Of a stretch of DNA of 64,000 nt, positions 4,280 to 52,065 are shown in pieces. The stretch is from Blasia pusilla (lineage: Eukaryota). Within the stretch, counting starts at the first letter, position 1. Each line of letters opens with the position of its first letter. The position numbers were made by a program, and so were the translations under genes. The DNA lies in NCBI GenBank assembly GCA_050084515.1, contig CM114271.1, forward strand, positions 16,368,001-16,432,000, given 5' to 3'. A model generated the notes under the pieces. The model saw only the letters and a list, made by a program, of their open reading frames with translations. It was not told the DNA's origin and did no database searches.

Positions 4280-4870
4280 AAAAATAAAGAGTAGTAAAAA
4301 TGGCACACCCGGCCTTAAACTCCACTCCTCAATCTACATCGGCATATCGAGCCTCGTCCACCCTGTGCTATCAAGGAATCCGGACGCTAGCACCCTAGTC
4401 CTAGCTCACACACATACAAGGGAGGTGCTCCAACGGCCCAACATGAGAAAGATGGCTTAGGAAAGCCATCTTCCTCTCTTATATAGCCCTTCCCTTGGTA
4501 ACCTGCGCGCACAAGTTACCAGGGGCAGGTGACCTGGTCAACAAGTCACCCGGCTGTAAAAGACCTCAACATGAAAGTTGTCAGAAACAACGTTCCTGAC
4601 ACAATGGACCTATCCTCAACCTCATCCGACACTATGGGACAAAGTTACACTCGAGATAGTCCATTGGCTCCTACGCCCTATCCACGATAGATCTCGGCCT
4701 ATCGGCTACTCAGATGTGACAGTTGTCATGTGCATACATATCGCTACACAACATACATCGCTTGTCACATTTACACCACACAACACCGATCTTCCCCACA
4801 CACGGGTCAATCCACACATGTACAAAAATCAACTCATAGATCTCGGCCTATCGGCTACTCAGATGTGAGA
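4280..4870 (-). repeat. Terminal repeat block of copy 1: A fragment (4836-4870), B fragment (4724-4838), 2-bp spacer, full A (4280-4721)
   Basis: Direct match to the A and B segments of copy 2. Junction TGACA-GT-TGTCA at 4717-4728. Confidence 0.88.
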
Positions 4871-11200: not shown

Positions 11201-12346
11201 CCACGAGTAGAGAAAAGATATCTAATTCTTGTATATTCTGCTTGTGCTCTTGACACCCTCAGAAGTTTATCTTCTATCGTGGGCATTGTTGACCATAGGC
11301 ACTTAAATCTTACTGAACTTTTGCTCAAGGTTTCTTCATTCACTGTCTTTCAGATACTGTTGTCTGCTTGAATCCTGTTCAGGTTATCAAGGTGTGATCG
11401 GTGGGATGGACCCACAATGCTGTGAGTCCGAAGACTGGGTTGAAGCAGCTGGTATCAACCAGCTATCTGGAGGAAAGAATCAGCCCTTTTATCATGTACG
11501 ATTGCAGAACCCAATGGTTCTCTTTCTAGACCTCAGCACATGGGTTTAGGAGCAAGTATGACCAGTACTCATGAATGTAATGATGTGAGGCAAGTGGCTC
11601 AGCTGGCCTATATTTTGCTCCCAACAAGCGTATCCTTGTGTTCAGGTTTTGGTGAGAATACAAGAAGATCCTAGTGAGCCACCATTTTTGGTGGCTTATG
11701 GTAAGTAAGGCAGGCCTTCCCTGTATGTAGAAATTTCTGTTGAGCAGTATCGATTTCCAGGTTTATGTGTTGACTTCAGAGCTTCTGGGCTTTACTACAA
11801 TTCCGATATGCTTCAGAGGACATGCTCAAGTTCTGAGTAACGGCCTTTTCTGCTCAGTCAGACTTAGCCCAAGTTTTCGAGATGGATAGATTTCATTCCA
11901 CTCTGTCTGTGCCCCTGATGTGACTCTCACAGCATCTTCCGTAGCTTATCTTATGTTTGTGTTCGTGTGTTGCAGTGGCCGAAGAGAACCTCATCATTCC
12001 AGATGAGCAAGATATAGTAAGTATTTGTCCACTGGTCTCCAAGATGATTGAATACTACGTTGCGAGTGAAGTTGGAACTTAGTTCAAGTATGTAGTTATG
12101 GGATCACCAAAGACTTCTTAGACAGAGTAGGGCCAACACTTCACCATGGAAACAGGTATTTTCTAACTAGTCACTGTATTTCAGGGGCGCTTTGATCATC
12201 CATACACGTACTTTCTTTTCTATGGGATGGATGGCGCGGGGGATTTCATTCCATCGAAGCAGTTACGGGAGAAATACAACGCACCTCGACACGAGCTTCC
12301 TTATGAGGAAGATGATGGCTCTTCCAGTAGTGAGGGACCGTCATGA
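8246..12346 (+). CDS. CLPF: Chloroplast Clp protease adaptor ClpF (UVR + YccV-like domains). Exons 8246-8599, 9971-10030, 10318-10415, 10832-10910, 11095-11188, 11383-11495, 11646-11700, 11976-12016, 12185-12346
   Basis: Ser/Arg-rich transit peptide, NEELLMFLFQLDLSTRLQRALNSEQYEAA, UVR motif LQRAIETEDYPGAARIRD, FRLGQRVKHK, NQPFYHVLV, YVAEENL, RFDHPYTYFLFYGMDGAGDFIP. GT-AG introns give a continuous frame. Confidence 0.9.
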
Positions 12347-15901: not shown

Positions 15902-16780
15902 TCACTTCCAATCTAGCTCCTGTAGGGTCAAAAGAACTCTATCAATCGGCGGCGTACACTTCTCATCCCTTTTCCATACTCCTAGTTGGAGCTCTACCAG
16001 CTCAAAACGCATCGGATCACTGAGGCTATCTCCCCACAGTGGCCGGCAGTCGAGGCATGCAAAAGTTAGAAGTGGAGGCTGGCGAATCGATCCTGTCGAG
16101 AGAATACCATCGCAGACCAACTCCGCTTGGAAAAGGAGGGGGAGTGCGAATTCGTCGCCCCCATCTTCTCCTTCTTCTTCTTCCCAAGGAAGAACGCCAT
16201 CCGGAACAGGAGCACTATGAAGTAAGCAAGCCATTTTGTGGTCCGTGCTGCGCACCACACTCCAATTGAGCCAGTATTTCGAACTGTGCACCGTTTGGAA
16301 GGGCTTTTCGTAGTACAGCTGACCTTGATAAAACAATGGCGTAAGGGCATGCCTAGGAAGTATTGAATCCGTCATTACCGAGGGGTCGATCTGCAGTCCC
16401 ATACTGAAGGCCTGGCCAATTAAACTCCCCGGTAATACCTCGGAGATGACAGGAACGTCATTGTAGGTTAAATCCACGAAGAAGGTGAGATGTTCCAACC
16501 GGAGCCAGGGACGAGGAGGAAGCTGCTTGGGAGGCCGACTCATCGCCAGAGCACGCCTGGAAAAGAACACCCGAAATCCTCCCATGGCCTCTATAACCTT
16601 CCGGGCATCCTTCCTCAGACACCCTGGCCATCTATCAGTGCAGAGAGTCCTCCATAAATGCTCCCCTTGACCGACCTCGCGCCACAAACGGCAGACGCAA
16701 CAGGAAACCCCGAGCTCTTTGTCAGGGAGCCGAGCAAAGACCAAATGCAGGACCTCCACGACTTCCATTCCTGCATACAT
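15902..16780 (-). CDS. Single-exon F-box protein (292 aa)
   Basis: N-terminal F-box-like motif VLHLVFARLPDKELGVSCCVCRLWREVGQGEHLWRTLC..RWP in a long intact ORF. Confidence 0.8.
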   Translation of the reverse strand: MYAGMEVVEVLHLVFARLPDKELGVSCCVCRLWREVGQGEHLWRTLCTDRWPGCLRKDARKVIEAMGGFRVFFSRRALAMSRPPKQLPPRPWLRLEHLTFFVDLTYNDVPVISEVLPGSLIGQAFSMGLQIDPSVMTDSILPRHALTPLFYQGQLYYEKPFQTVHSSKYWLNWSVVRSTDHKMACLLHSAPVPDGVLPWEEEEGEDGGDEFALPLLFQAELVCDGILSTGSIRQPPLLTFACLDCRPLWGDSLSDPMRFELVELQLGVWKRDEKCTPPIDRVLLTLQELDWK

Positions 16781-18828
16781 ATCAAGCCCCTGGCAGCAAA
16801 CTAACTGAACCGAGTCGTTTCAAATTAGATTCCACTCCCTCGCCCCGAGTGCTCAGCGATGAGACCTCCCAATTCACACCATCCGCGCGGCCGTTCCACA
16901 TCTGCCGATCGCACTGGACAGATGTTCTCGCAGATCCTTCAGTCGCAGTCGCAACGCATATAACGAGACCCTACACCCTCCCACAAGCAGACATTCCTAT
17001 CTGAGCTAATTAGGTTCGCGGCTGGCGTATTGCCCTGAGGACCCACCACACGATGATCCGCACATAATTACGAGCCCGACTCCTTCACCATGAAGAGCTG
17101 CTCCCCGGTGCTCTTTCCTGCCTGTCAAAACATCCGCTCCGCAGAAGAGCCCGAGGCTTCGGCGCTATGCCTGCGGGCAAGCAAACAGTGCGATCACTGC
17201 ACCATACCCTGATCTGAACATCGGGTCTGCGGCACTACGGATGCAACTCCCTTCAGCACGACGCCTAGCGCGGGGCATTATCTGCCTGCTGCAACAGGAA
17301 GCCAGCTGCGTCCGGCGCGATGGCCTCCGAGACCTGTGAAATGAATGGGAGGGCAGCAATAGCACCCCTATCTCTTCTCCGAGCTCCCAGGCGCGTCACG
17401 TGAAAGATTCCTTTGGCGCAAATTCATGTACAATCGTCGCTGCGATCATTGCACACGAATTCTATCACATCCTCTCCTCGGCGAAATGGACGATCCTGTG
17501 GCAGCATCAGTGCTCCTGCACTTATCTGCTCACCATCACGCACGCAATCCACACCAAAAATCGCGCCAAGAAACTTCCGCAGCGGCTAAAAATTTCCTCC
17601 TCGAATTTCCAAGACTCCACGTTCCGGCGCTGCAGGTTTCTTCTGCTCGTTGAGCTCTCGTAATGCGAGCGAGTGCAGAGATCTAGTCGGGAAATGCGCG
17701 CACACCGGTTTTTCAAGGGTCTCTCTCTGCCATCGCTGGACACCAAAAAGGAGGAGCGCTGGATCCTCTCCCTCCTCCCCCTCCTCCCCGTTCGTACGTG
17801 AGGACGGATGTTCACATTTGCCGTTACATGGACGGATAGTTTCTTCTTTCCGTGGACATTAGCATTGATGATTGTTCAGTCCGGATCCGCGAGTAATTAG
17901 TCAAAGCAGGACGTTAAGCAAATCGTCACCGTCTCCTTTTGGATCCGACCGTCCCTCATCGTAGGATTCCCTACAGCTGCTTCAATTAGCCACGTGGGAT
18001 TTCTCCAAAGTGGACTAATTCGCTCGCTGCCTTGGGCTCCATCATCGCCCTCTGTCCGTCGGATTTCACAGGATGGGATCCATCCAGACCGTCCCTGCTT
18101 ATGACGGGCTGCGGCGAGTTAAGTGTCGGGCAGATTTTTTTTTTCTTCTTATTAGCGGCCAAAATAATCTCGTTCCAATTAACGATCCTTTCGCTACACG
18201 TTTAAAAACTATTTTTACAAAAATAATAAAAATTTATTTGTTCTTGTAGGTATAATAAAATTATGATAAAATTAATAACGTGGCATTAGAAGACAGAGTC
18301 TACATCATTATTTGAGTGCTTTTTTATTTGCAAACACTTCTTTGTTTAACCCGTGGCAATCGGACATTAAGAATATGGTTTCCCCTCTACGGATAGTAAG
18401 AAAAAGTAAGTGAAGGGACTAATCATGTTGTGTGTAACATGATTAGTCCCTTCACTCCCGTCCCGTGCATGGCAATGGCTGCCCACTAGTTTGAATTATC
18501 CATCATTGACCTCCTCAACTCAACCGATTTCAATGCACTTCCTTATCACTCGTAATCCCATGCTCTTTCTTGATGGACTTCAAAACTAACTCTAAATTAT
18601 AAAACATACATATCAAGATGCAAGTAACAACGAAATGCCTCATATAAATAGGAGGAGTTTGAAAATGAAAGGACCACTATCAATTAATAATATAGATTGC
18701 GTTTCCCCATTTTTTATGAATAAAATAGAAGGCAAATGAATAATTGCATAATTATCCTTCCTTATTGGTATAAATATGTTGCCGATAAATGCACTTGATC
18801 ATATGGAGAGAAATGAAAACACCCAACA

Positions 18829-19479: not shown

Positions 19480-20420
19480 GTGGGAACAGGTGCGGGCTTG
19501 AATGAAGGATGCGAGCTAAGGGCGAGCCACATGCGCGACGATGGGTGAGAGCGGGCTAAGGGTTAAGGGCGGGCCTATCGCCGACCTCAAACTTGGTGGG
19601 CTGAGGGTGGATCACGCGGGCCTTTTGCAGGCGTGATGTGGGCTGAGGGCGGGCATGGTGCCGATTGAGGGCGGGCCTGGCACAAGCTCCCGCGCGGGCT
19701 TGCGGGTTAAGGGTGGGCTAGGCGGGTTGGGGGCGGGCCAGTTGTGGGCCTAGTGCGGGCTACTGCGCGGGCTAAGGGCGGGGCTGACGTGCAACACGGG
19801 ATAGGGCCATCTAGTTGCAGGCCTAGCGAGCCAAGGGCAGGCGAGGCGTGTTGGATTCTCAACATCCACTTCTCCAAGCACCATTAATCTGATCGGCCCC
19901 CTTGTATGAGGAGAAGCCTAGATTGATGGTTCCGACTTAGACGTCGAAGGAGTCATAGTAATATGACGTAGGTGGTTTACGGAGTAGCATTACTAGATTT
20001 ATCTAACCCTATATTGCATCAGGGTGCGGGGCACCCTGATGCAATATAGTGTTAGATAATAGAAACGAAGAAAAATAGGTAAAAACCCTAGTTTTCCCAA
20101 GTAGTCAAATAGTCGGGAGCCGCAGCGGTAGCGTATTCTCGTATGTCGAGTTATCTCCCAGTTTAGGTTCCATTGAAGCTCTTCTGTGAGCGCACGGATG
20201 GACTAGGCCACTTTGTATCTCTAAGTTTTGTAAAGATTTCAGTGATTTTGTCACTTTCTGCTTTTTCACAAGGCGGGTTGGTGGCGGGTGGCTGGCATGT
20301 TGTGGGCCTAGTGCGAGTGCGGGGCTGAGGGGGGGCTTACAAACAGGACTATCGCAAGCTTGGTAGGCTGGGGGCGGGCCAGGTGCAGGATCCCCCACGG
20401 GCTTGTGGACTGAGGGTGAG
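19480..20420. repeat. GC-rich degenerate short repeats (GGGCTGAGGGCGGGC-like), probably DNA-transposon subterminal repeats
   Basis: Many variants of gggct(a/g)agggcggg at 19480-19850 and 20280-20420. Confidence 0.55.
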
Positions 20421-20838
20421 TGTCGCGACCCTCATGACCAAACGAGTGCCAAAGCGGAACATCGGAACATTACCGGGCTCACGCTAAGATGGTTCGCGCG
20501 TTGGAGTGGTCTCGAAGAAGAGACAAGATAAGGGACGCAAGCAAGGCTTCGCGTTTCAGATGTTGTGGTCGCGAGGGAGAAACCTGGACCAAACGCGGAA
20601 CAAGACTTGAAAGGAGTTGAGTCTAGAAAGTGGGTTGCCAAAGGAAGAATCCGGATTTGGGACGACACTAGCGTTTGAGAGTTTGCGACTGTATTTATGG
20701 CCATAACTTTTAGCGCCAAGATGCGTTGGAAGACTTATGGAAAGACGGTTCAAACGCACTAAATATCTCTGCAAACCCATGAGCATCGGCTGAGAAACAA
20801 TCCGGAAACGATTGTAAGTAGAGTCGGGTTGAGGGCCA
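20421..20838 (+). repeat. 5' part of an LTR of the solo-LTR family at 58107
   Basis: Starts TGTCGCGACCCTCAT and is collinear with 58107-58558. Confidence 0.8.
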
Positions 20839-22588: not shown

Positions 22589-23068
22589 TGTCACATCTGA
22601 GTCGCCGATAGGCCGAGATCTATCGTGGATAGGGCGTAGGAGCCAACAGACTATCTTGAGTGTAACTTTGTCCCACGGTGTCGGTTGAGGTTGAGGATAG
22701 GTCCATTATATCAAGAACGTCGTTCTTGACAACTTTCATGTTGAGGTCTTTTACAGCCGGGTGACTTGTTGACCAGGTCATCCGCCCCTGGTAACATGTG
22801 CGCGCAGGTTACCAAGGGAAGGGCTATTTTTAGGGGAAGAGCCTTTTGGCTCTTCCCAACCCTATATAAGAGAGGAAGATGGCTTTCCTAAGCCATCTTT
22901 CTCATATTGGGCCGTTGGAGCACCTCCCTTGTATGTGTGTGAGCTAGGACTAGGGTGCTAGCGTCCGGATTCCTTGATAGCACAGGGTGGACGAGACTTG
23001 ATATGCCGATGTAGATTGAGGAGTGGAATTTTAGGCTGGGTGTGCCGTTTTTACTACTCTTTATTTTT
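22589..23068 (+). repeat. Repeat A1 (contains TATA box and predicted R-U5)
   Basis: Direct repeat of 32011-32489. Confidence 0.92.
22863..22907 (+). promoter_or_regulatory. TATA box and predicted transcription start (~22894) of the retrotransposon
   Basis: TATATAA at 22863, 31 nt upstream of CATCTTTCTCAT. The arrangement is conserved in all A copies. Confidence 0.6.
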
Positions 23069-23082
23069 ACATGAGAAAGATG
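23069..23082 (+). promoter_or_regulatory. Putative self-priming primer-binding site ACATGAGAAAGATG
   Basis: Immediately follows A1. Reverse complement of CATCTTTCTCATGT inside A. Lacks the TGG start of a tRNA PBS. Confidence 0.7.
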
Positions 23083-24733
23083 TCGGGGGGATGGTGGGAA
23101 GTCGTTGTGAGCAGGTAGGCAAGCGAGTTACCTCGGTTGGGGAGCCCATGGAGACGTGTGTGACATTTTGTGTCATTTTTCTGTTCGGAAGGCCGTGGGC
23201 GGAAGCGCTGTCCATTTTTCTCAGATTTTGCTGCTGTGGGTCATGGAGGACATCAGCGGAGTGTCTCACAACGGGTGTTCATGGGCGAGTGTGTCAAGAG
23301 AGAGAGAAGAGTAGCTTTGAGAGCTACAACCGCCAAGAGGATCGTAGATCATAGCCGCCTAGGTCAGAGTTAGGTCACGGTTTTTGTGGCGGCAGTCGTT
23401 TAGGTCTAAACGGACACGAGGGGCGGGCGGAAGCGAAACGGGGAGAGAGACTCGCCCACGTCCGAGGCAGGGAGTCAAAATTGGGTGTGGGGGTGTGAAG
23501 GCTCCTGGGGGATCGGGTGGGGCTGCATAGGGCCGCGGGCCCGTGGAGAGTACTTGTAGAGGCCGGAAGGGTCCAAGATAATTGGAGGAACCCGAAACTC
23601 CAGGAACCCGGAAGGTGCATAAGGCACCGTGCCGTACACAGAGGGTTGGAGGAAGAAGGAGGTAAGTTCGCAGGACTGGGTCAAGGCCGCAGCTAGGAAA
23701 GGGAGCAAGGGCTGACCACATAGGGCGGCGTGCCCGGAGCTCTAAGGACACAAGAAGCTCCATAGGGAGCCGCACAGGTGTAGTTAAGAGGTAGAAGGGC
23801 CGTAAGGAGGCTCAGGGCATGGGCGGGCTCAAGTGTAGGGAGCCACGCATTGGATTGGGCACTTTGCACCGCGCATGGCCCAAGGAGCCATGCGCGGTGC
23901 ATAGGGACTGCGTCGGCAGGAGTGGCCACATAAGCCCACGTGCCTTACGCGGTTTAGAGTTGAACGCAACGTCGGGTTAGGGATACGGGGTTGGGGGCTT
24001 TTGAGGAATGTGGGAAAATAGATGTTGTGGTAAGCTGGAGTAGACATGGTTGGACGGACGTGGTAGGCATGCTACCTAGTTGAGCGTCCGTTCTGGGCTA
24101 AGTTTGACTACGAGTGAGATGAGGTATTCGCACCGACCATTCTCGATGGAGAGTTGACGATGGAGTGTCAATGCGCTGATGTCGATGTATGGGTTGTCTG
24201 CATCTGTTGACGCGAGGATCGACGTGTTGGTCGAGGGGAGTGTTGTGTTGCGGAGATTGTCATCTCATGTGGAGGAGTGCATGTTGACGGTGCAGCAGGT
24301 TGGAGGGCGTGATCAGGTTACCCATTCGAGTCCCTTTTCCCGCACTTGTCGTGTGTGATTGAGAGTGTTGGATATCGGGTAGTAGCTGGTGCTAGATGGG
24401 TGTAGTGATGGTGATGAGTGTAGATTCTTTCATGTGTAGCATGTTGGTGGATATACGGCGGTTGCCGAGTAGGGGTCGCGTGTATGACCCGAGAGAGTGT
24501 CGCTAGGTTAGGTGAGTCAGTAGGGAGGCTCATGGTGAGCCCGAGTGTTGAGCGTGCGTGAGGCCGGGTATGTCATCACGGGATTGATGTTAGCATAGGT
24601 GAGCTAGTGAGGCGTGTGGGAGACTCTCGGTGAGTCTGAGTGCTTGAGCGGGTGAGACAGGTTTTGTCATCACGGCAAAACCTCGTTCTTCCAGGGTTCG
24701 GAAGAACGAGGTAGTGCGAGCAGTGGTAGTGGT

Positions 24734-27230
24734 GTGACACAGAGTGGAGTGAGATACCGAGGGGTTACCGGTGAGGAGCTCCCGACATCTATCCGTGGAT
24801 CGGATCATCATCGACCGGGCGAGCGTGAGCGAGATCGCGAAGAGAGTAGTACTTGGCAGGAGATGGACGACATGGGCCATCGGGGCATGCGTTGTTTCTC
24901 GAGTGCAGTGGGCACCATCGACTTAGATGATTTTATCCAGGAGTTCAACACATGGTGCGACATCCAGGAGATACGGACGCCGACACGGTTCAACCCTTTC
25001 ATGGCATGGAAGGGGTTGTTCTAGCACTTAGAGGGTCCCCCGATGGATGACTACATGGAGTTTCGATCACTATATTCAGTAGAGATCGATGCCTGGAGGA
25101 TGTATTGGGCTCCAGGGTATGTGCCCACTAGTGGTCGTGAGGCATATGATGGGATTGTGAGAGGAGAGAGACCCACACCATCAGCCCGGAGACTAGATGG
25201 AGAGGAGGGCAGTGAGACAGGCGATATGGCAGAGACCTCTGGTGGTAGAGGGCCACCTAGCTCCAGCCCCACGGTGGAGTTCTTCCGGCAGTTGGGGAAG
25301 AGCTACGGGCGTCGCCGACAAGTGAAGAGTCTACATGATTTTCAGCGGCGATCGGGTGAGAGTTTGAGAGATGCATTCACACGCATGAGGAGGCTGATCA
25401 TTGCTACGTTTGGAGTGATTGAGGCGCGATCAGTCCGATTGAGTGCGGGGTTTTGGACCGAGAACTACGGAGGAGAGTCCGAGATGCGGTCTTGATTCAC
25501 AGCCAAGCCCACATTGAAGGTGGTCTTTGAGTTGTCCGAGCGTTGAGCTCAACATGAGTGAGGAGCGGTAGTGACGCTGGATTTTCTCGAGAGTCGCGGG
25601 TCCCCGGCGGTGACCCCACGGTGCCCAATCTGCGGGAGTGGGCGGTGTGCCTAGAGAGGCGGGTACCGTGAGCCTATGAGGCAACGACCCGCACCTACAT
25701 ATGTTGCTCAGCAGGGATCAATGTGGTCTTGTTGGACGTGTGGAGGGGCCCATAGGCAGAGAGACTACCCACACCATGGGAGAGGACCACCAACGCCTCC
25801 GATTGCTCAGGAGCCACAGAGGATGGACCCACCATAGCACTAGTGTGACCATTGCCACGGATATGATCACACTAGGGATAGATGTTTTGACCTTCGTCGA
25901 GGGGCACGTCCTGAGGTAGGCCGAGGGCCTGGGGGCGGTCTTCCTAGAGGAGGTCGGGAGTTCTTCCTGGACGTGGTGGTAGAGGACCACCACTAGCCAG
26001 AGGAGATGGAGCAGGAGCACCAGAGCGAGAACTTCTCTCACGCATCGATCAGTTGGAGTAGAGGATTGCTGCCATAACGATGATGCAGCTTAGGGAAGGC
26101 ACGGAGCTGCGAGCAACTAGTGTGACTCCAGCTTCTACCTCTTACCTTGACCCGGGTGAAGATCTCGCGAGTATGGGATTTATGTGTAGTGCAGCCCAGG
26201 TTGAGGGAGTTGCAATGGTGACTCGGTGTGCTGCGAGAGGCACCGAGCCATCGAGAGGTGGAGTTGAGATTGACCCACAGAGGGAACCGATGGGCGGCAG
26301 GCCAGGGTTCCATAGTCGTTCACATTGTCGGAGGCACTACACACACCATCGATGGTGCCTCGACAACCAGGGGTGCCTACAGTTCAGGCACCTACGTCGA
26401 TGTCACGAGGAGTTGGAGTGACAACTCCTATGCCGGCTCGAGTGGAGTCAATGTCGACCATAGTGTTGGAGGTGGCCACCAGAGTGAGTCAGACTCCGCT
26501 ATTTTTCGGCTATAGAGTTGGCGACGTTGGGAGTTGGACCAGCTGAGGTGTTCCGGTTGGCCGCCACGTTGTGTGAGCGTGGAGAGATGACTGCTTCTTG
26601 TTCAGAGGTAGTTGAGGAGGTGGTGGACTTGCCCTAAGAGCGGTCCTTGGGACATTCCCAAAGAGTCGTGGCATTGGCGGCGGTTGGTAGATATGCGGCT
26701 CGACCGCCATAGAGCGGTGTGGTGACACTGGAGTAGTGTTCTTTGGATATGCGAGCTGGAGTATTTCGCTTGGTTAGTCCGGCGGGGCGGTATGGCGCGT
26801 CCTACTTGATTTGGGGCGCAACCCTTGATGTTAGGGAAGGCGGCGTGTTTAGCGTTGGGGTTCGGAAGGCCGACATTGAGCCTTGTCCCTTCAGATCTGA
26901 GACCTCGATTAAGGCGTATCACCCCTCGATATATGACTCGACAGAGATTGTTGTCGAGTCGGCGAGCATCGGACGGATAGTGCTATGGTGCGCACAAGTG
27001 CGATTACGACACCAGCTAAGTCGTACGATGTGTTGGTGGGGAGTACAGTGGTATATCCCCTAGGATTCATCCTTGACTTCTGGGAGGAGACCGTTGCTTA
27101 TCGGCCAGGATGGCGGTCAGGTGACGGCCGCATGAGTCAGTTACCCGTGCAATTTGCCGGACGAGGTGGTCGATCACGAGGTGAGTCTGTGACCATGTTG
27201 GCAGCTTTCACAGGTAGTGTTAGCTAGCAG
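24734..27230 (+). pseudogene. gag and protease of copy 2 (frameshifted)
   Basis: Collinear with copy 1 gag/PR (FNPFMAWKGLF, FQRRSGESLR, YDVLVGS, WRSGDGRMSQLPVQ). Confidence 0.85.
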
Positions 27231-27504
27231 GAGAGTTGTTGGAGGGGAACACACATGCGGAGGATGTCCCAGTAGCGGATAGTCCAACGGAGAGACAGGC
27301 CATGGCGGGTGTCTCTTCCCATGTTGGCGAGGCCTCTTCACCATTGTGGGGTACAACTTGGGAGCTACAGAGGAGTGTCGAAGACCTCGTGAGGCACGCG
27401 TGGAGTCATGTTTTATTGCCCGCGAGAGTCACGTGGCGTCGGGCTCTTGGAGTGATACGATGACCCCACTAGATACCACACTGTTGTGTGGCGGTGCCGA
27501 AGGA

Positions 27505-28475
27505 GGGTGTTAGGGTGTTAGATCTCTTCGGAGGGATTAGCACCGGATTGGCTGCACTATTGCAGGCGGGCATACGGGTGCATCAGTACCTTTATGTGGA
27601 GAGAGATGAGACGGCGCTGCGAGTATCATTACGTCACGTGGCGAGATTGGTCCAGAGGTATCCTGAGTTGTTGTCAGACTGTCATACGGGGATACCGGAT
27701 ACGCTACCCGCCGACATCTCTTTGGTGGGGGCATAGGATCTTGATAGAGTTGGCACCATTCATTTGGTGATTGCTGGATGGCCATGTCAGGGTCATTCAT
27801 CAGCTGGCCAAGGATTTGGATTGCATATCCGAGGTCAGGGATGTTTTGGGAGATGCTGCGAGTAGTACGACACTTGCAGGAGAGTCAGATATGTTCTCCA
27901 GCGTACATTTTGGAGAACGTGCCGTTGTTGGGAGACACTCGTGCACGTGTGATGACGAGTGTACATCAGGTGAGGTCCTGGTTGGGACCTTCTGTGTTGT
28001 TAGATGCAACAAGAGTTGGGTCACGTGCCCATCGTCCACTACTGTGGTGGACGAACCTGATACCATCAGAGGTACTGAGTCGAGCATACAGTGGAGTCCA
28101 GAGAGCACCACATCTCACAATGGATGCTATTTTGGGCTCAGGGCGTCGATCTCAGGTGGTGACATGAGATGATAGACCACCGTTGGCCATGGCCAATAGG
28201 GTGGGGGAGTTGAGGGCAGCCTTACCTATGTTGGTGAGCTTCCCAGCATCCCATGCCTTTCGTCAAGGAGGGCCAGGCATGATTTGGGATGAGGTGACCG
28301 GAGCATTGGAGGAACCTATAGTAGATGAGCGCAAGCGCGCCATGGGGTTCACTACCGGTACAACGGCGGTGCCAGGGATGATTGAGGCTTCCTGGAGACA
28401 GGTGTTGGGGCAGGCGATGGACCTCAACTGTCTCACATGGATAGTCAGCCTAGGTATGGCTGAGCAGAGACGAAT
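27505..28475 (+). pseudogene. C5 cytosine DNA methyltransferase domain of copy 2
   Basis: VLDLFGGIS, IAGWPCQGHS, YILENV, RAHRP, ERKRAMGF, RQVLGQAM. The C-terminal part is in frame with the RT N-terminal ORF at 28741. Confidence 0.9.
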
Positions 28476-28740
28476 GTGAGTGTCATCCATGCCGTCACGT
28501 CCACGAGTTGGACCATTTCCTACAAGGTCTGTACAGGCATTGGCTGGGGGCGAGACGAGGAGAGATAGGCACCCATGGACTTCCTGGGATGTTGTTTGAG
28601 CAGAGAGTGCGAAGGCGGCTAGAGTAGCACATGTTCATTTTTCGGATGTGGAGCATGGTGTAGGAGGTCAGAGTGGAGTGGTTGTTGCGGAGGTGGCTAG
28701 GGTTGCTACATAGCAACCAAAGCCAGAGGTTGGGTCCTCT

Positions 28741-30135
28741 TTGAGTGAGGTCACGATGGAGACTTCGGAGCTTGTGATAGGTCTCAAGTTGATAGGAGGA
28801 GAGCGACGGCGAGTTCATAGGTTTCTGAGAGGGCATGTCAATTGTTTTGCCTTCAGTATGAGAGACTTGGGTACGCTGAAGGGTCTCGGGATGCGGATTG
28901 AGTTGGCTAGTGATACGCCGATCTTTCGTCGACCCTACAAGTATTATGATATGGAGCGAGCCTTTATTCAGAGCAGGAGTCAGGACTTGTGGAGTTATGA
29001 CATGGGGAGTATGCATCTGCCACAGTCATGCCGGCGAAGAAGGATATGTATGGCAATTGGACGGATAGGCGGATGTGTGGAGATTACCATCCTATCAACC
29101 GAGGCAGTGGATCGACACGCCATGCCTACTCTGAGGAGATCTTTGATGCGATAGGGCATGCAAAGATCTTGACTTTAGATCTCCATCTTTGGCTATCATC
29201 GACTTCCTATCACGTTGGAGGAGAGGAGAAGACGACGATGCAGGGGATAGATTGGTTCGGGAGAGATTTCTTGTATCGTGGCGGTTCTTACCATTTGGAT
29301 TGAAGAATGCGCTCATGAGTTTCAGAGAGAGTGATGGATAGGATTCAGGCTGGCTTGGATTTTGTACGATGTTACATAGATGATATTCTTATCTTCAGTT
29401 CCACGGTTGAGGAGCATGAGCGACACTTGGAGGAGGTGTTTTGGCGATTGTAGTTACATGGACTGAAGTTACATCCACGCAAGTGCAGATTCTTTCAGGA
29501 GCAAATTGAGTACTTGGGACACACCATATATCCGAGTGGGTTAGGCGTTCAGCAGACAAAGGTAGAGGCTATTGCGCAGATTCCACGCCCTACAGATGTG
29601 AGTCAAGTCCGAGCATTTCTTAGACTGGCGAACTTCTATCGACGGTATGTCAAGGGTTTTAGTGCGATCGCAAAGTCTTTGACCTTGTTGACGAGACTTG
29701 ATCAGGTGTGGTTGTGCAACCTGTCCTCACCCATTTTACAGAGACCGGTTAGGGGTGGCCCATTCCAGTTACATACGGATTGGAGCATGTTGGGTCTAGG
29801 AGCAGTGCTTACTTAGAGGGATGACGAGGAGAGGGAGTTCGTTGTGGCTTACGCGAGCCGATCGAACAACATTGCAGAGGCAAAATCTGACGGCTCCTAC
29901 GAGGGAGAGTGTTTGGCTGCAGTGTGGGCCGTGGCACATTTTAGGTGCTATTTATTCGACAACCCTTTCACACTTATCACTGATCATCAGCCGTTGAGGT
30001 GGTTGATGGAGTCCGACAAGCTTACGGGCAAGCTTGCCAGGTGGGATCTATTACTACAGGAGTATGAGTTTGAGGTGGTTCATAGGCCAGGTCGGCTGAA
30101 CCAGGATGCGGATGGGTTGAGTCGTAACCCATGTC
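28741..30135 (+). pseudogene. Reverse transcriptase and RNase H of copy 2
   Basis: RMCGDY, YIDD (29373), FLRLANFYRRYV, LHTDWSMLGLGAVL, YEGECLA, TDHQPL, DADGLSR. Confidence 0.92.
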
Positions 30136-30359
30136 CGAGTCAGAGAGACGACACAGGAGCTCGATGGCACAGAGAGAGTGATGAGGAGATGGTGCCCGGT
30201 TGGCATGCATCTGCCTATCTTTGTTGGTTGACTATGGCAGGTCAGCCACAGGTGATGACTCCAGAGGTTAGTGAGAAGTCCAGTGGTGGACTTCTCACTA
30301 ACCTCCGGATCCAAAGACTCCAGTGAGTCTTTGGATCCGGAGGTTAGTGAGAAGGCGAC

Positions 30360-31811
30360 AGGTGGTCGTGATATCCATGACGACGTGGAGGTTGTGGAGT
30401 TCTTGCGCACTGGCGTCATTGGGAGTACAGTGAGTGCTAGGGAGCGGGATCGGATCCTACAGAGAGCCAAGAGGTTCAGGTGGGAGGGGACTCACATTTT
30501 TCGGGTATGGGGAGATGGTAGGATACGAGTGGTACCTCATCCTTCCCAGCGAGCACGTGTAGTGCGACATGCCCATGAGGAGTTGGGACATTTCAGAATA
30601 AAGCGTACTCACAGCTTACTCCATGTTCAGTATTGGTGGCGCGGCATGCATGTTGGGGTACAGTAGTTTGTGGCCAGATGTATGGTATGTGACAGAGTGC
30701 GAGCATCCTTCAATGCTCCCACTCCGCAGTTACATCCTTTGCCGATTATGGGTTTAGGTTATCGGTGGAGTTTAGACTTTGCAGGACCTTTGCCATTGAC
30801 AGGGCGTCATCATAGGTACGTGTTGGTCATGGTGGAGCATTTCTCCAAGTGGATAGAGTTGGTGGCACTACCAAACAAGGCGAGCGAGGGAACAGCTTAT
30901 GCGTTTCTAGATCTTGTGCTTAGTCACTTTGGTGCACCGGCGGAGGTGTTGACGGACCAGGGTACCGAGTTCAGGGGAGAGTTTCAGGCCTTGTGTGATC
31001 AGGCGCTGATAGATCACCGCACCACGTCGAAGATCATCGAGGCGGATGGGTTGGCGGAGAGAGTTGTGCAGAGCGGTGAAGAGAGGATTGCGCAAGTATG
31101 GCTTGCAGCGGGGGCTTTGAGATTGAGTGGGACCTACAGTTGCCATGGTTGGCTATGGGTTATCGCTTTAGTCGGCAGGCATCCTTGGCGTCATTTTCAC
31201 CGTACTTTTTTCTCTTTGGGAGAGAGCCAGATTTACCTGCAGCGATTCAACGAGACATGGCGGAGGTGTTAGATCTTGATGATCCAGATGTGTGGGTACA
31301 AGCATGTTCTCAGAGGGCAGAATTTTTTCGTAGAGTTATGCCTATGGCCTTTGAGAACTTAGCTATTGCCCAGCATAGAGATACATTGAGGTACGCGACC
31401 ATTCGTGGAGTAGGTTATCATCCAGGGATTATGAGGTTTCATCCTGGAGATTACGTGTATTTACAGCAGGCGGCACCCACGACGCTAGATGTCACTGCAG
31501 GGCGCACGATCCTACGTGTGCGTGAGGTATTACCGACCGGAGTTCTCATGTTGGAGGGACGGGATGGTATGGTTTGGAAGGATCATGTGCGCAATTGTGT
31601 GCCATGTCATCTTCCGAACGTAGATGGGACGGTGGATCCGAGCTTGGCAGTGGTACCTGCAGGCTTGAGGTGTATGTTGTGCGGATCTGCGAGGGGTGCA
31701 GCCACCATGTTGGTATGTGATGGTTGTTCTCGAGGGTGGCATATGTCATGTCTGACCCCCCCTCTTGATGTGGTTTCCACGGGACAATGGATGTGTCTGA
31801 GATGTGTATAG
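30360..31811 (+). pseudogene. DDE integrase with C-terminal PHD finger, copy 2
   Basis: HEELGH...CMVC zinc-binding domain, WSLDFAGP, LTDQGTEF, GLAER; C4HC3 PHD at 31671-31808. Confidence 0.92.
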
Positions 31812-31878
31812 GGTAGTAGGTCATGTCAGATAGATGTGATATTTTCTATCTGGAGTTGGGGGGATCCATTTGTCAGCT

Positions 31879-31887
31879 AGGGGGGCA
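31879..31887 (+). promoter_or_regulatory. Polypurine tract
   Basis: AGGGGGGCA immediately before repeat B1. Confidence 0.7.
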
Positions 31888-32627
31888 GTTGTGTGATCTC
31901 CATGTATATGTATGATTTGATTTTTGTACATGTGTGGGGAAGATCGGTTTTGTGTGTGTAGATGTGACGAGCGATGTATGTTGTGTAGCGATATGTATGC
32001 GCACGACAGCTATCACATCTGAGTCGCCGATAGGCCGAGATCTATCGTGGATAGGGCATAGGAGCCAGCGGACTATCTTGAGTGTAACTTTGTCCCACGG
32101 TGTCAGATGAGGTTGAGGATAGGTCCATTGTGTCAGGAACGTCGTTCCTGACAACTTTCATGTTGAGGTCTTTTACAACCGGGTGACTTGTTGACTAGGT
32201 CACCCGCCCCTGGTAACTGTGTGCGCAGCAGTTACCAAGGAAGGGCTATTTTAGGGAAGAGCCTTTTGGCTCTTTCCCAACCCTATATAAGAGAGGAAGA
32301 TGGCTTTCCTAAGCCATCTTTCTCATGTTGGGCCGTTGGAGCACCTCCCTTGTATGTGTGTGAGCTAGGACTAGGGTGCTAGCGTCCGGATTCCTTGATA
32401 GCACAGGGTGGACGAGGCTCGATATGCCGATGTAGATTGAGGAATGGAGTTTTAGGCCGGGTGTGCCGTTTTTACTACTCTTTATTTTTGTTGCGTGATC
32501 TCCATGTATATGTATGAGTTGATTTTTGTACATGTGTGGATCGACCCGTGTGTGGGAAAGATCGGTATTGTGTGGTGTAGATATGACGAGCGATGTATGT
32601 TGTGTAGCGATATGCATGCTTACGACA
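31888..32627 (+). repeat. 3' repeat block B1 (31888-32008), GC spacer, A2 (32011-32489), B2 (32490-32627)
   Basis: B1 and B2 are direct repeats (B1 has a ~17-bp deletion). A2 matches A1. Confidence 0.92.
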
Positions 32628-34098
32628 TAATTCTAAAGGTAAATAGGTACTCAAGAACTTTATTAGATACATATGATTCATCCCCTCATCCAAAATAGAA
32701 TTAACACTTAAGTATATACTCTCCTACAAACATCTCATAGAAAAATGTTTTTTTAGGAAAAATTCTTTTGATGTTATCTTTTATTCTAGATGAATAAAAA
32801 ATAAAAAATAAATCACATTCTTATTGAATCTTAATATAACTTCTAAACTTATATCATCAATGTTCTTAAATTATGTCATGTCGAAATAGCAATATCCCGA
32901 AGATTTTGAATTTTAGAGAACTTTTAAGGATCTTCCCCATGGATAATAGTAATGATATCATTTTGTGATCATTTTAGTGAGGAGCTTAGATGGTAACTTA
33001 GGAAGATCGTCGTCTAACTCCAAGACGACGATACAAAAAATACAAAAAATATTCTTGTTGAAGATATGCATGTTGACTTTCCAAATTTTAGAATCTCATA
33101 TGGATTACAATCTCCACGAAGAGCAAGACAAAGGACTTCATGAAAATCTCCACCAAAAATGAGAAGCTTTACCCCAAATGGCAAGTCTCTCAAATTTTTG
33201 GAGACCGTCCTCAATGAGACTTTCTAGGGTATGATCAATGACCTCAAAGGACAATATTGATAAATTATAGGAGACTCATCCCATGTAATGAGCAAGGGAT
33301 TTCTAAGTATATATGTCGAATCACGATCACCTTATGGCTTACATGAGGAACTCTCATCAAGATTTATAAAAATCTTGAATGAGCTATAAGTCCTCCATCC
33401 AATAAAAATGTAATTATCTTAATGACGTAACACCTAAAATTATACAGTGCGCACTATTGTCTAACTTTGTCTTTCTAGTTCCAATTGGACCATTAACAAC
33501 AAAGGATTTTGGTGAAAGCATCATAACCTGTACAATCCTTTCTAATTAATTATGTACATGATTCCAAAAATCATTTTTTTATCACTCAAATATTTGTTAT
33601 CTTCAACTACTCAACTGACTCCTATGATATATATATATATATTCATAATTTTCTTGGACATAAATATGTATGTCTTCTCATTATGCTTTACTTTACCTTA
33701 CTATGGCCTCCTTATTTAACTCATGTAACATATTTTTTAACTCCATCTATACACAATACACTTCTTGTCAATAATCCCTTCACTGTGGGATCCAAAAATC
33801 TCTTGATAGGTAGTCCAGGATGCTATCCTTCTTTTGCGTAAGGAGATAATAAAAAATACGTAATGTAGTTTTCTCCTCATTTAGATTTTACATGCGATTT
33901 TAAGTCATGTTCTCCCCCTCAACACACACATCAATAGGTGGGATATGTTCAAATGGTGAATACCATGACTTTAATCAAAGGACCTTTAGTACCCCAATGC
34001 CCCAATATTTTATTCAGATGCAAAGCAAACCAAGTGCAAAAGCGAAAGAAGAAAACCAAGTTTCTTCTCAGCCCGATGAAGTGCTGACAGCACAGAGG

Positions 34099-39983: not shown

Positions 39984-42467
39984 TTAATTATCCTCAACTT
40001 GGACAAAAAGACTGGCATTTGGGTGAAGCCCTGCATCTATAAGAGACAAGTTGAGTTTATCTGGACCATAGACTGTTCGAGGGAAGTTAGATACCAAACT
40101 ATATTTGACCGCATCGCAGGCACCAAGTGAGTCCACATAATCATAAATCTTCCGAACGCTGTCAGTAGAATAAAATCTCCTGTCTTTTCGCTCTCCATTT
40201 GGTAACCGTACAAGTACCTACATGTAACACAGCATTTTTCATCCTTAGATATCATAGAATCATATGCCCAAGCTATGGAAAGTCGGGCCTTTTGACAATG
40301 CAGTTGAGTAACTAAAGGTTGTAAAGGAAAGTCCAGTGATTACTTGAGTGACATTGGAGGCCTTTGCAGGCTCCAACCCCAAAGACATTGCCTTCTCCTG
40401 CCTGCGACGCTCCAAAGCCAATTCCTTCTCTGCAGCTTCTCTGGCTGCTCGTTCCACAGCCTGTTCTTCTTCTCTTTTCTTCCTCTGTGCTTCCTCTTGC
40501 TCTTGTGCTGCCCGCTCAGCTTCTTCTTGGCGTCTTCTCTCTCTCTCCTATTCAAGGGTCAGCACGGGAATTCAGAGTCTCCATCCACTTGACAATTTAT
40601 TCTCACAACTGGATGGCTACAATCTGAGGTCAGGGGCACCTGATCACATGGCTCTTTGTGCACTAACTCTGATCACCTATGATATCAAACTTGCAATCTG
40701 ATGAAGCAACAAACAGACTCAGGTGTCTAATGTTTAGAGATAGTAAGCATTTGAGATCCGATTAGTCGGGCAGATTACGAAGGTGCAGCCATGTCAAAAT
40801 CGCAAACAAAAAAGTATCTGCATGCCCTCCCTTGCATGAACAATCTTTTGTACATTGGTTGAAAAGTCAGACCTGATCCGCTTGAAGAGCTGCTTGATAT
40901 GCGGCATCTTGCTCTTCCCTCAAGCGCCTGTTGAGCTGACGTTCTTCCTCTTCAACACGGGCAGCAACAAGCACTGCTCCTTGCTCCTCCACTACTCGCT
41001 GCAGAATGCTTAAAAGCTCACTAGCGGTCCTGGGTCCCTCTATCTGTTGCATCCATTTGGTTCAATTGTCATGACACGTTCAAGTGACGCAAACAAAGCC
41101 CAAAAAAATCCCTTCGCTAAGAATTTTGCACGTAAATTTAGGTGAACGGGAAGGGGGGGTAGCTCCTGCTTTACCAAATCAGTCGTACAGTGAACAGCTT
41201 CTTAAAATGAAAAATAAAAACGCCATCACGACCTAGTGTGAGGAAGAACTGCATGCATACCAGGGTGCTGATCCGCATGAAAATACGGAATGGATCCGAC
41301 GAAAAGTGTGAGGGCAAGAAAACTATCGGCAATCTCACACAGCTGGGACCCTGGGGGAGGTAGAAACTATGAACTGACAAAACGGCTACGTGGAGTAAAG
41401 ATTTGGAGTGTTACTATCAAAAGGGAGCACAAGTACCCAACAATCAGATGCAGACGAAAAAAGTTGGGGACCTGCTGTAAGAGAGCGATACGCTGGTTCG
41501 AAGAAGCTGTAACGATGGCACAAAATGGGAAGGTTGATGCTTTGAGGCTATTGCTCATTTGGAAGCCCTCGCTGGTCCGCACGTCTCCACCCCAAACCAC
41601 AAAATGTTCGTTGATGAACTCTACCACAGTCTCTGAGCACAGACTGCTCTCGCAAAACGATGGGGTGTTCGCGTGCTCTGGGGAGTGTAAATACACAAAT
41701 AAGAACTTATATTGCTGTCCTGCACTCCGCAGAGCCTCCATGAAGCTCATGATCTGAAACGATGGGTGATTCTCCCCATACTCCCTCTCAAAATTCCTCA
41801 TAAAGAGGGTCGCCTCTGACGCTCCGGTGGGCAATGGCAGAAGCGCTCGGCTATTTCTCCTATCACCTATACCTCCGCCCAAACCTAGAGCTCCCAAAGA
41901 AAACGAAACCATCCCTCCAGCCGCCCACATTCCAAGCCCTACCGCCCCATACATGAGGTTGTAGCTTCCCCGGATCATAGAAAACGGCAAGGTTACCAAC
42001 CTCCAAGCGATCCCTGGCGCCTGCAGATTCTGTTGCCCTCGGTATGGATCGTCGAAATCCCTGTACCGATCGTAGTTCAACAAAGTCCTTTCGGGGCTGC
42101 TCGGAAAACCATTATAATTCCCTGCATCAGAATTTCGCCGTCCATGAGAGGCACCATGCTCCTCCTGATCCCGATTGCCTGGAAGCCCGGAATCCCGCTC
42201 AGCTGCAGAGGCCCAGCGACTGGAATCGGCACCCTGCTCCGTCCTCATCGCACTTCTGCCCTCAATTGCAGTGGAAGTCCCTCCTCCCCCCACAAAAGAA
42301 TTCACAGCTGCGTCCAAATCCCATCCGTGCGCCTCCAGAATCTGCGAGGAAAGAGATACATCCCCCACCCCTGTTACATCCTGGAAGTACGCCACCTTCG
42401 CATCATTTTCTCGCGATTCACTCGCCATCGCTACCACTCCCTCCTCTCTTCCGTCTGCACCATCCAT
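39984..42467 (-). CDS. PUX10: Plant UBX-domain protein (UBA-like, UAS, coiled coil, UBX). Exons 42467-41472, 41043-40873, 40547-40344, 40217-39984
   Basis: FQDVTG...ILEAHGWDLDAAV; KFLFVYLHSPEH; LREEQDAAYQAALQADQ; VRLPNGERKDRRF...NFPR...AGLHPNASLFV. All introns are GT-AG, phase 0. The start could be the later ATG at 42428. Confidence 0.88.
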
Positions 42468-43652
42468 CAATTCATGCCCTCGCTAAACCCTAATTCATCG
42501 CCGATCCCTCTCCCCGATCCATCCTGCACCGTTTCCACTCGCGTCTACATCCACCGCATCCAACGCGACCCCGTGAACTCCCTCAATCGCTCTCCGCGTC
42601 ATGAATCTTCAGCGCTTCCTCGCACTTCGCTCCAGAATCTGGGGCTCCGCAGCATTCGTCGCCTCATCTCTCATCATCGAGGAAGAAGAGAGGAGGCGAA
42701 GAATGCACATACGCGGAAGAACCGCAGCTCCTGCCAACTCCAACACGTCCGTCCGTCGGTCCTCGGCCGGCGCCCTCTGACCGGTCCATCCGCGGATTCC
42801 CCAATACCAGATGGGCCGTTTCTGCCCGTGAGATGGAAGTGAAGATCGTACCGCCGAAATTCTGCCACGTTTCGGAGCCGCATAATTTCCCCGATCAATG
42901 AATGCATGTCGTTCTTTTGGGGTCACTAATGGGCGTACTGCGAACCCAGAATGAGCTTTTTCCAAGCCCAGTTCGACAAAGGCACTTACCGAAGGAAGAA
43001 AGTTATTACGGCCACTCCATCGTTTTAGGCGCCTCCATTTCGGGCTACTTAGGTCTGTCTATGATAATACTAGTCTGCTCTCTTTGGATGCTCCCTTTGG
43101 ATGCGCCAATGTCTACCATGTTACCGTGCTTGTAGTTGTTCCTAAGGGTTCGGCAATAAACCCATAACATTCCGCAATAAAATATGTAGGGTGGGAGGGG
43201 TTGGTAGAGTAGATGCTTTTATAAACTCCAAGTGAGTCGGATATTGTGGAAAGATGGTTAGTCTAACCAGCGTGCGGCCCAAGGTAGTTATGTGGTGGGG
43301 TTGATGTAAGTAAATTGAATATTAAGTGTGGGTTTAAGGAGAGTGACTAGTATATGGGCTGGAATTTGGTTGAATTTGGTTGGTTTATGAAATAACAATC
43401 CTTTGTAATTGTGAATGAAGCTTCATTGAGGATTATAACTGAAGAATCAATATGGATCAAGGAGATCATGTGTCTATAACATCTGATATCCTGAATGTAA
43501 AATGAAACTAGTTAGCAAGTCTTGAAATCATCTTATAGCTTGTGGGAGTTGATGATGAGCTTGTGCGATAGCAAGAGTATCCCTCCAGCTTTTGTACAAT
43601 GTTGAGCAGATCTACTGAGTAGCTTCTTGAAGCTCAGTAGATAGAGTAGTGG

Positions 43653-45495: not shown

Positions 45496-46135
45496 AGCAA
45501 CCCATCGGCTCACACGGGTTGGAAGAAGACAAACAAAACAAAAATTGTTTGCAACCCGTCGGAGTCCGAAGGGTTGCTCCAAAAGATTCCTTGGTGCAAT
45601 CCGTTGGAAACCAAAGGGTTGCATCCAGGTGCATCGAGGTATGGTAGCAACCCGTCAGAGTCCGACAAGTTGCACCTCCAGTCCACTATATTAGAAAATT
45701 CAATCCATCGAAACCCAACAGGTTGCAAAGCCACCCACACCGGGTATTATGTTTGCATCCGGGTTGAGGATTCCGAGGCAATTTTTTTCTCTTGCAACCC
45801 GTCGGAGTCCGACGGGTTGCACAAACTGTAGTTCCGGCAGCCGAGTTTGATTGGCCTTGCAACCCGTTGGAGTCCGACGGGTTGCATGTTCCTTACAGAA
45901 GGTCTGGCTTTGCATGCCTTTGCAACCCGTCGGAGTCCAACGGGTTGCATATGCTGTAGGAAAGGCCTGTTTTGAGTGGTTGCAACCGTCGGAGTCCGAC
46001 GAGTTGCATATGCGGTAGGAAAGGCCCTGGTTTGAGTGGTTTGCAACCTGTCGGAGTTCGATGGGTTGCATGTTCTTTACGGAAGGTCTGGCTTTGCATG
46101 CCTTTGCAACTCGTCGGACTCCGGCGGGTTGCAAA
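45496..46135. repeat. Array of ~11 palindromic units TGCAACCCGTCGGAGTCCGACGGGTTGCA
   Basis: Copies near 45496, 45550, 45595, 45647, 45700, 45793, 45858, 45921, 45981, 46042 and 46105. Confidence 0.9.
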
Positions 46136-46377: not shown

Positions 46378-46590
46378 AACATGACATATGGTAGACCTAA
46401 CGCCAAGACTGATTTAATTACCAATAGGCATGGACCATCAATTGTTGAACCTTAGCTTTTGTGAGGTGTCATTGCATAGCCCAACATGACATATGGTAGA
46501 CCTAACGCCAAGACTGATTTAATTACCAATAGGCATGGACCATCAATTGTTGAACCTTAGCTTTTGTGAGGTGTCATTGCATAGCCCAAC
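46378..46590. repeat. ~105-bp tandem duplication at the helicase C-terminal end
   Basis: aacatgacatatggtagacc...gcatagcccaac is present twice, head to tail. Confidence 0.9.
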
Positions 46591-51982: not shown

Positions 51983-52065
51983 AGCCATGCAATCGGGTTG
52001 AGGGCCAGTTGGAGAGGCCCGGGTGTCTTTCCCTAAATGTAGGGAACCCCGAAGATCCCTAGAAA

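Follow-up and report, generated by a model that had tools for sequence, protein, structure and literature searches.

Why should a retrotransposon carry an enzyme of the kind that is normally used to silence it, an unusual turn in the conflict of transposons with their hosts? The question is raised by a stretch of 64,000 nucleotides of contig CM114271.1 (hereafter the window, that is, the whole stretch of DNA that was analysed; coordinates count from its first base), in which a reading made from the sequence alone had placed a cytosine-5 DNA methyltransferase (C5-MTase) in the Pol polyprotein of a retrotransposon, between the protease and the reverse transcriptase (RT). The reading that we favour, at a probability of roughly 80%, is that region 27505-28475 is the DNMT3-type methyltransferase (MTase) of a decayed Ty3/Gypsy element (22591-32627, plus strand) in the genome of a liverwort-like land plant, and that this element belongs to the Gypsy-DNMT3 class. 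Every copy within the window is broken and nothing at the locus is functional; the locus itself is ordinary decayed repeat DNA. The MTase-bearing family to which it belongs is widespread in the green lineage, occurs in two domain arrangements and carries a PHD finger.

A DNMT3-type methyltransferase inside a Gypsy polyprotein

Region 27505-28475 (plus strand) is split into many short open frames, and the domain was read from a three-frame translation of 27300-28700. The frame of 27302 holds motif I (VLDLFGGISTG), an acidic motif II (YVERDE) and motif IV (GWPCQGHS), and the frame of 27301 holds motif VI (ILENV), motif VIII (RAHRPLLWWT), motif IX (RAMGFTTGTT) and motif X (GQAMD). In this copy, which we call copy B, motifs I, IV (PCQ), VI (ENV), VIII, IX and X are all present and collinear, which confirms the C5-MTase motifs in the order and at the positions that the sequence-only reading had given; the second Arg of motif VIII has been substituted. 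The domain is interrupted by two stops (27734 and 28165) and by a break of frame near 27826-27829, and its pieces are 67.5%-70.3% identical to the Marchantia protein P0003 (translation, tblastn). At the frame break, 16 contigs of a DNA sequencing run (X1), about a quarter of the depth, differ by one base in length, as do two of five RNA reads of X22; because of these one-base differences the break is private to a subset of the family copies.

A second element on the minus strand, copy A (1-4871), is represented by its 5' part, which ends inside the MTase at the start of the window and has 89%-91% nucleotide identity to copy B. In copy A the protease, a linker and the MTase form a single frame of 686 codons running from 2058 to 1 with no frameshift, interrupted by three stops (1275-1273, 612-610 and 534-532), the latter two inside the MTase. 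The MTase of copy A (1-906, minus strand) has motifs I to IX, motif X lying beyond the window edge, and is 66.2% identical to P0003 over 302 residues. The RT of copy B starts (28774) in the frame of the C-terminal MTase part, from which stops at 28477 and 28597 separate it. Stops apart, the MTase is in frame with the protease in one copy and with the N terminus of the RT in the other, as had been claimed. The claim that it sits at the same position in three copies stands for two: copies A and B keep the domain, but a third, copy C, has only the linker and motif I.

The MTase domain is DNMT3-type with the ordinary motif order, a class assignment that is a ranking against solved structures and not a tree with reference DNMT families. 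The proposed search with PF00145 is passed by copy A when X is put in for its three stops (33.5 bits, cut-off 22, E = 4.1e-8), and the resemblance exceeds chance. Six of seven intact relatives also pass (31.9-51.3 bits), and the match to them covers profile positions of about 49-155. Against the PDB, the N-terminal piece of copy A returned DNMT3A/B/C in 29 of 29 matches (best E = 1.1e-3). With a profile built from 42 family members, the 29 best-ranked of 57 rows were all DNMT3A/B/C (best E = 1.8e-24), and the alignment with DNMT3A ran in three collinear stretches (motif I, motifs IV-VIII and motifs IX-X), in an order that is not rearranged. The next ranks were held by the DRM enzymes of tobacco and Arabidopsis (1.4e-13 to 1.3e-9), M.HhaI (1.2e-8) and DNMT2 (about 1e-4), and no row of this profile search at E up to 1 was named DNMT1 or chromomethylase. 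The fold points to the same class. An AlphaFold model of the relative P0014, computed from the 42-row alignment (predicted local distance difference test score, pLDDT, 84.2; predicted template modelling score, pTM, 0.83), retrieved only DNMT3A/B/C chains among the Foldseek matches listed, with a best E of 2.7e-18 over about 330 aligned columns and target-normalised template modelling scores of 0.77-0.83 against isolated DNMT3 catalytic domains. A first model, based on a 12-row alignment, was unusable (pLDDT 43.8).

The MTase of copy B belongs to a whole, decayed element (22591-32627), which was delimited by self-BLAST, Pfam and tblastn with Marchantia and Sphagnum relatives and has the layout A1-coding-B1-A2-B2; all its parts lie on the plus strand. 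Repeats A1 (22591-23068) and A2 (32013-32489) are its 5' and 3' long terminal repeats (LTRs), which are direct repeats with 94.4% identity over 481 columns, a divergence of 5.6%. Between them follow a gag remnant (24863-25894; tblastn with residues 1-350 of P0003, 42.8% identity), an aspartic protease remnant (26503-26910; tblastn with residues 43-185 of the relative P0019) whose DSGAQ motif is visible in the copy A homologue, the MTase, and the RT with RNase H (28774-30323; tblastn with residues 699-1133 of P0019; Pfam RT_RNaseH 2e-21 and a weak RVT_1). The integrase (30541-31029) consists of an Integrase_H2C2 domain (30541-30651, Pfam 7e-8) and an rve core (30760-31029, Pfam 3.7e-14), and 3' of it lies a PHD finger (31671-31805; Pfam PHD 4.1e-10, 39.9 bits against a cut-off of 24). 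The order of Pol, protease-RT-RNase H-integrase with a DDE (rve) integrase, is that of Ty3/Gypsy elements. The PHD finger occupies the place that the chromodomain has in chromoviruses, after the integrase; PHD fingers are described as a common accessory domain of Chlamydomonas transposons in the available text of PMC8557442.

A second repeat, B, of about 130 bp, stands on both sides of the 3' LTR. B1 (31888-32008) lies directly 5' of A2 and B2 (32490-32627) directly 3' of it, with 81.9% identity over 138 columns, and the layout is therefore A-coding-B-A-B. In copy A, repeat B is found upstream of the 5' LTR (4724-4871), with the initial 32 nt of A in front of it. The A-B junction is also kept in a rearranged fragment of a related element (fragment D), where 51981-51597 matches 32254-32630 of copy B at 77.6%. 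The same notation, "A-coding region-B-A-B", is used for DIRS elements by de Mendoza et al. (2018), whose legend to Figure 4c assigns the same repeats, together with a Gypsy domain composition, to the Gypsy-DNMT3 element of Klebsormidium nitens (PMC5890265, available text). Ordinary LTR replication gives no explanation for such a DIRS-like arrangement in an element with a DDE integrase.

Relatives, conservation and transcription of the family

If the domain is a regular part of the element, it should recur in the same place in other species. A protein-collection search with the N-terminal piece of copy A returned 27 proteins at 34%-67% identity, 14 of them from Marchantia polymorpha, two from Calypogeia fissa, two from Sphagnum and the rest from metagenomes; most carry a precomputed PF00145 annotation. 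In Marchantia, Calypogeia and Sphagnum, relatives that have the window's order and 45%-67% identity bear the annotation "hypothetical protein"; those in Closterium are more distant. In intact relatives the order is gag (CCHC), aspartic protease (DSGAQ), a linker of about 120 residues, MTase, RT, RNase H, integrase and PHD finger. The C5-MTase inside Gypsy Pol, between protease and RT, on which the sequence-only reading was centred, is thus found in the same order in contiguous open reading frames (ORFs) of many bryophyte and charophyte proteins.

The family extends well beyond these species. A profile search of 1.84 billion cluster representatives gave 6055 matches at E up to 1e-3, 1577 at E up to 1e-10 and 457 at E up to 1e-30, the weak end of which may include ordinary DNMTs, part of the profile covering protease and linker. 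By a domain hidden Markov model, the MTase is present in 197 of 209 gathered proteins. Among the 68 that also have an RT it stands before the RT in 15 and after RT/RNase H in 53, counts that include near-identical cluster members (proteins P0028-P0195 and P0316-P0329). Both architectures were recovered by Pfam on 22 long representatives, 13 of which have a PHD finger after the integrase; a G-patch domain was seen in three of the 22. Two "pol" proteins of Scenedesmus sp. PABB004 (e.g., KAF8056149.1) have the MTase after RNase H. Seven proteins were named as from Closterium species, and two of them have the window's order.

We placed the two window copies in a maximum-likelihood tree of 63 MTase rows, a quick search with two outgroup rows on long branches and hence an unsure root. 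Copies A and B pair with each other (Shimodaira-Hasegawa-like approximate likelihood ratio test, SH-aLRT, 100) within a clade of 15 rows (100) that comprises Marchantia, Calypogeia and close relatives, and the Closterium rows group apart in a clade of their own (97-99). The 22 rows in which the MTase follows the RT all lie to one side of a branch with weak support (74), and all 39 bryophyte-type, Closterium or window-order rows fall on one side of another (SH-aLRT 83, from the same quick search).

The catalytic residues are strongly conserved. In the alignment of 42 rows, in which identity to the first row drops to about 26%, the Cys of motif IV and the Glu of ENV are invariant, and the Gln, Ser, Ala and Gly of motif IV, the Asn of ENV and the two motif VIII arginines each occur in 90% or more of the rows. 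Copy A and Marchantia P0003 are 55.8% identical in gag, 59.4% in the protease, 41.0% in the linker and 66.2% in the MTase, and the RT and RNase H pieces of copy B are 62%-74% identical to P0019. Judged from these identities, the MTase is about as well conserved as the RT.

We also looked for the element in sequencing runs. DNA run X1 has 136,469 contig records on a 10-kb stretch, with 29 of 30 bins covered, all four MTase bins included. Three RNA-seq runs, whose species label matches that of the best DNA run, placed 858, 903 and 1007 reads on copy B at a likeness of at least 90%. Almost all have one orientation, the first mate lying on the minus strand, which in most stranded libraries means sense RNA. 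In all three runs many reads fall on the 31972-32016 segment alone (about 45 nt at the B1/A2 junction), with loose ends at 31970-31972 and 32008-32020, which suggests a short motif common to other transcribed repeat families.

Several observations weigh against our reading, in part or as a whole. The raw ORF pieces gave no PF00145 match, neither the 51 from copies A and B nor the 59 from 51.5-60 kb at E up to 0.01, nor seven pieces at E up to 10; the pieces miss the profile because the breaks fall in the motif IV-VI core, the sole part that Pfam matches in intact relatives. The C-terminal piece alone had no match in the PDB by phmmer. At the element ends, which are complicated by the B repeats, no target-site duplication, primer-binding site or polypurine tract was recognised by eye. 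The ratio of nonsynonymous to synonymous substitution (dN/dS) between copies A and B is 0.57 over 271 codons of the MTase, which is no lower than wrong-frame controls (0.49 and 0.70); the values for gag and protease are 0.45 and 0.65. RNA depth over the MTase bins is 1-6x, whereas the RT-integrase bins reach 6-22x, and about three quarters of the reads have a likeness of 90%-95% (637 of 858, 677 of 903 and 717 of 1007); of all placements, 58%-67% continue into unlike sequence. Regarding class membership, the kinship with KnitGypsy-Dnmt3, the element of Klebsormidium nitens, rests on features in common and not on a sequence tree, and no Klebsormidium protein occurs among the named matches of the family searches (a profile search among longer proteins gave 15 matches, with Prorocentrum as the sole name). 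Finally, the KnitGypsy-Dnmt3 domain had no detectable methylation in a yeast assay, a result that the authors regard as inconclusive (PMC5890265, available text).

Two of these points can be qualified. The dN/dS values give no sign of selection between A and B, as is to be expected of elements that decay once inserted, and are uninformative in this respect; the neutral evolution that the sequence-only reading had named as telling against it does fit the two window copies, but in the family the catalytic residues are invariant and the MTase is conserved like the RT. The RNA reads come from sibling or related families, given their mostly 90%-95% likeness and their run-on into unlike sequence, and they show low-level transcription of the family, not of the locus itself.

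Other copies, host genes and neighbours

In copy A, self-comparison places the 32-nt start of A at 4871-4836, repeat B at 4841-4724 and the LTR A from 4718 to about 4280; gag follows at 3377-2172 (translation, tblastn) and the protease-linker-MTase frame at 2058-1, all on the minus strand. Copy C (56001-59820, plus strand; tblastn, translation) is divergent. It consists of gag and protease (56001-58190), an insert of about 0.9 kb (58191-59121) and the linker with motif I (59221-59820), after which unrelated AT-rich DNA begins. The insert shares repeats with 20420-20727 (70%) and 53656-54098 (84.7%), which belong to another repeat family. Fragment D (51597-53634, minus strand) is 71%-78% identical to copy B by self-BLAST and holds, from a related element, an integrase, RT/RNase H and the end of A and B (Pfam RT_RNaseH 1e-30, rve 7e-8, Integrase_H2C2 8.8e-18). 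On the minus strand its integrase (53634-52941) comes before RT/RNase H (52942-52075), the reverse of copy B, and either a rearrangement or two nested fragments would account for this order.

The host can be read from a PUX10-type exon (41370-42482, minus strand), which is 68% identical to its counterparts in Marchantia paleacea and Riccia fluitans, 65% to that in R. sorocarpa and 63% to that in Calypogeia fissa, followed by Sphagnum (55%), Physcomitrium (54%) and then lycophytes. These identities make the host a land plant, and the most probable candidate is a liverwort that is not closely related to Marchantia. The exon is part of an FAF1/UBA/UBX gene of the PUX10 type (39987-42482, minus strand), identified by Pfam and with its best named matches in liverworts; Pfam further identifies a gene with UVR and YccV-like domains (10662-11546, plus strand) and an F-box gene (15905-16819, minus strand). 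Other repeats in the window include a remnant of an unrelated Gypsy RT/RNase H (4840-5913, plus strand; RVT_1 4e-16, RT_RNaseH 5.6e-17; 32% to P0019), which abuts copy A in the opposite orientation, a Helitron remnant (46560-49011, minus strand; PIF1-like helicase 7.7e-10, Helitron_like_N 4.3e-7) and a short tandem array that repeats about every 64 bp (45791-46133; self-BLAST). The observed/expected ratio of CpG is 0.62-0.77 in the element and 0.38-0.67 in the flanks; we did not use this comparison, because GC content differs too much.

Proposed role, origin and comparison with known systems

What would a live copy do with its MTase? Starting from the order of the domains, and from the view proposed by de Mendoza et al. 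(2018) that retrotransposon DNMTs methylate retrotranscribed DNA (PMC5890265, available text), we tentatively suggest, at less than even odds, that the protease would release the MTase from the polyprotein, that the released MTase would travel with the RT and the integrase, and that it would methylate new element DNA or DNA at the insertion site, perhaps avoiding treatment as foreign. That the catalytic Cys, the Glu of ENV and the arginines of motif VIII are conserved argues for catalysis.

It is somewhat more doubtful that the live MTase acts not on its own complementary DNA but on insertion-site chromatin, together with integrase and PHD finger, or on RNA, or that it serves as a DNA-binding module. 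The inactivity of the KnitGypsy-Dnmt3 domain in yeast would fit such a role, as would the larger branch of the family, in which the MTase adjoins the integrase and the PHD finger; against it, these Cys, Glu and Arg residues are conserved across 42 diverse members, and in the profile search the best E-value of DNMT3 is lower than that of the tRNA methylase DNMT2 by about 20 orders of magnitude.

Regarding origin, we consider it unlikely that the bryophyte and Closterium elements acquired DNMT3 independently of KnitGypsy-Dnmt3, as a case of convergence. DNMTs did enter retrotransposons repeatedly (PMC5890265; bioRxiv 10.64898/2026.05.21.726589; available text of both), the MTase has two positions within this family, and our comparison with Klebsormidium was made by features and not by sequences. 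Nevertheless, the two agree in the DNMT3 type and the motif order, both are Gypsy elements with a DDE integrase from a streptophyte, and both have the rare A-coding-B-A-B repeats; the 39 bryophyte-type, Closterium and window-order rows stay together in the tree. A bolder scenario, to which we give still lower odds, is that liverworts and mosses inherited a Gypsy-DNMT3 lineage from streptophyte algae (Klebsormidium, Closterium) and that it has stayed active in them, the MTase and the PHD finger next to the integrase forming a writer-plus-reader module that would mark the element's own new DNA or its insertion sites. If this were true, part of the de novo methylation of bryophytes would be transposon-encoded, not host-encoded.

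Very improbable, finally, is the reading as a piece of a host DNMT3 gene, recently captured or merely adjacent and present in few copies: DNMT3 is a host gene family in bryophytes (PMC5890265 and PMC12344493, available text) and only two window copies keep the domain, but copies about 10% apart have it at the same place and in the reading frame of the protease, it lies in contiguous polyproteins of Marchantia, Calypogeia, Sphagnum and Closterium, a recurrence that largely rules out such a capture, the gathered proteins carry it almost throughout, and its bins are all covered in run X1.

The preferred reading, a DNMT3-type MTase as a regular part of a Gypsy-DNMT3 element, has consequences for the known range of this class. 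In print, DNMT-carrying retrotransposons have been tied to dinoflagellates and one charophyte alga; later work names "streptophytes (Gypsy-DNMT3)" (bioRxiv 10.64898/2026.05.21.726589, available text). Our results place the Gypsy-DNMT3 type in land plants as well, in liverworts, including the model Marchantia polymorpha, and in Sphagnum mosses. A full-text literature search, with subscription journals and supplementary files outside its range, found no description of Gypsy-DNMT3 elements in liverworts, mosses or other land plants, a negative that is provisional, and the portions at hand of the review PMC9033089 and of PMC11982613 make no mention of transposon-borne DNMTs. The extension of the class to embryophytes foreseen by the sequence-only reading stands as far as the host is concerned, the PUX10 exon being 63%-68% identical to liverworts, but it was already visible in the public annotation of Marchantia, Calypogeia and Sphagnum. 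Because genetics, methylomes and DNMT mutants are available for Marchantia, the benefit that a transposon draws from a DNMT of its own may be tested in a tractable land plant.

Among host enzymes, the catalytic domain of DNMT3A/3B/3C (6w89, 2qrv, 6u8p) is the best counterpart by both profile and fold and has the same motif order. The family differs from DNMT3A in that identity is about 20% and motif IV reads PCQ instead of PCN, and from host DNMT3 in general in that its MTase is translated inside a retrotransposon polyprotein, with PWWP and ADD domains not found beside it by Pfam in the relatives scanned. In contrast with plant DRM, the motif order is not rearranged. Within the transposon world, the Scenedesmus-type elements (RT-RNase H-MTase-integrase-PHD) have an MTase of the same family (E below 1e-60 to the profile) and share the Gypsy RT, RNase H, integrase and PHD finger, but their MTase follows RNase H, whereas that of the window element precedes the RT.

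The other known systems were compared on the basis of the available text of their descriptions. The EpiLTRs of Cymbomonas and Euglena (bioRxiv 10.64898/2026.05.21.726589) are likewise LTR retrotransposons that combine a cytosine DNMT with a chromatin reader, but the preprint gives their DNMT as the sister of DNMT4, with a Dam-like adenine methylase and a chromodomain alongside it, whereas the element described here has a DNMT3-type domain, no Dam and a PHD finger. SymbioDIRS-Dnmt3 of Symbiodinium resembles it in having a DNMT3-type domain in Pol and A-coding-B-A-B repeats. It differs in being a DIRS element with a tyrosine recombinase and not a DDE integrase, in its dinoflagellate host and in its activity, its domains methylating CG de novo in the yeast assay (PMC5890265), whereas the Gypsy class has no known activity. 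The closest likeness is to KnitGypsy-Dnmt3, which has a DNMT3 in Pol with a Ka/Ks below 0.2 (de Mendoza et al. 2018; PMC5890265): both have a DNMT3-type, non-rearranged domain inside a Gypsy Pol ORF, A-coding-B-A-B repeats and a streptophyte host. Here, in contrast, the host is a land plant, the copies are broken and the dN/dS of 0.57 comes from two dead copies. The element thus joins the known streptophyte Gypsy-DNMT3 class, whose occurrence in land plants has gone unremarked in public bryophyte annotation.

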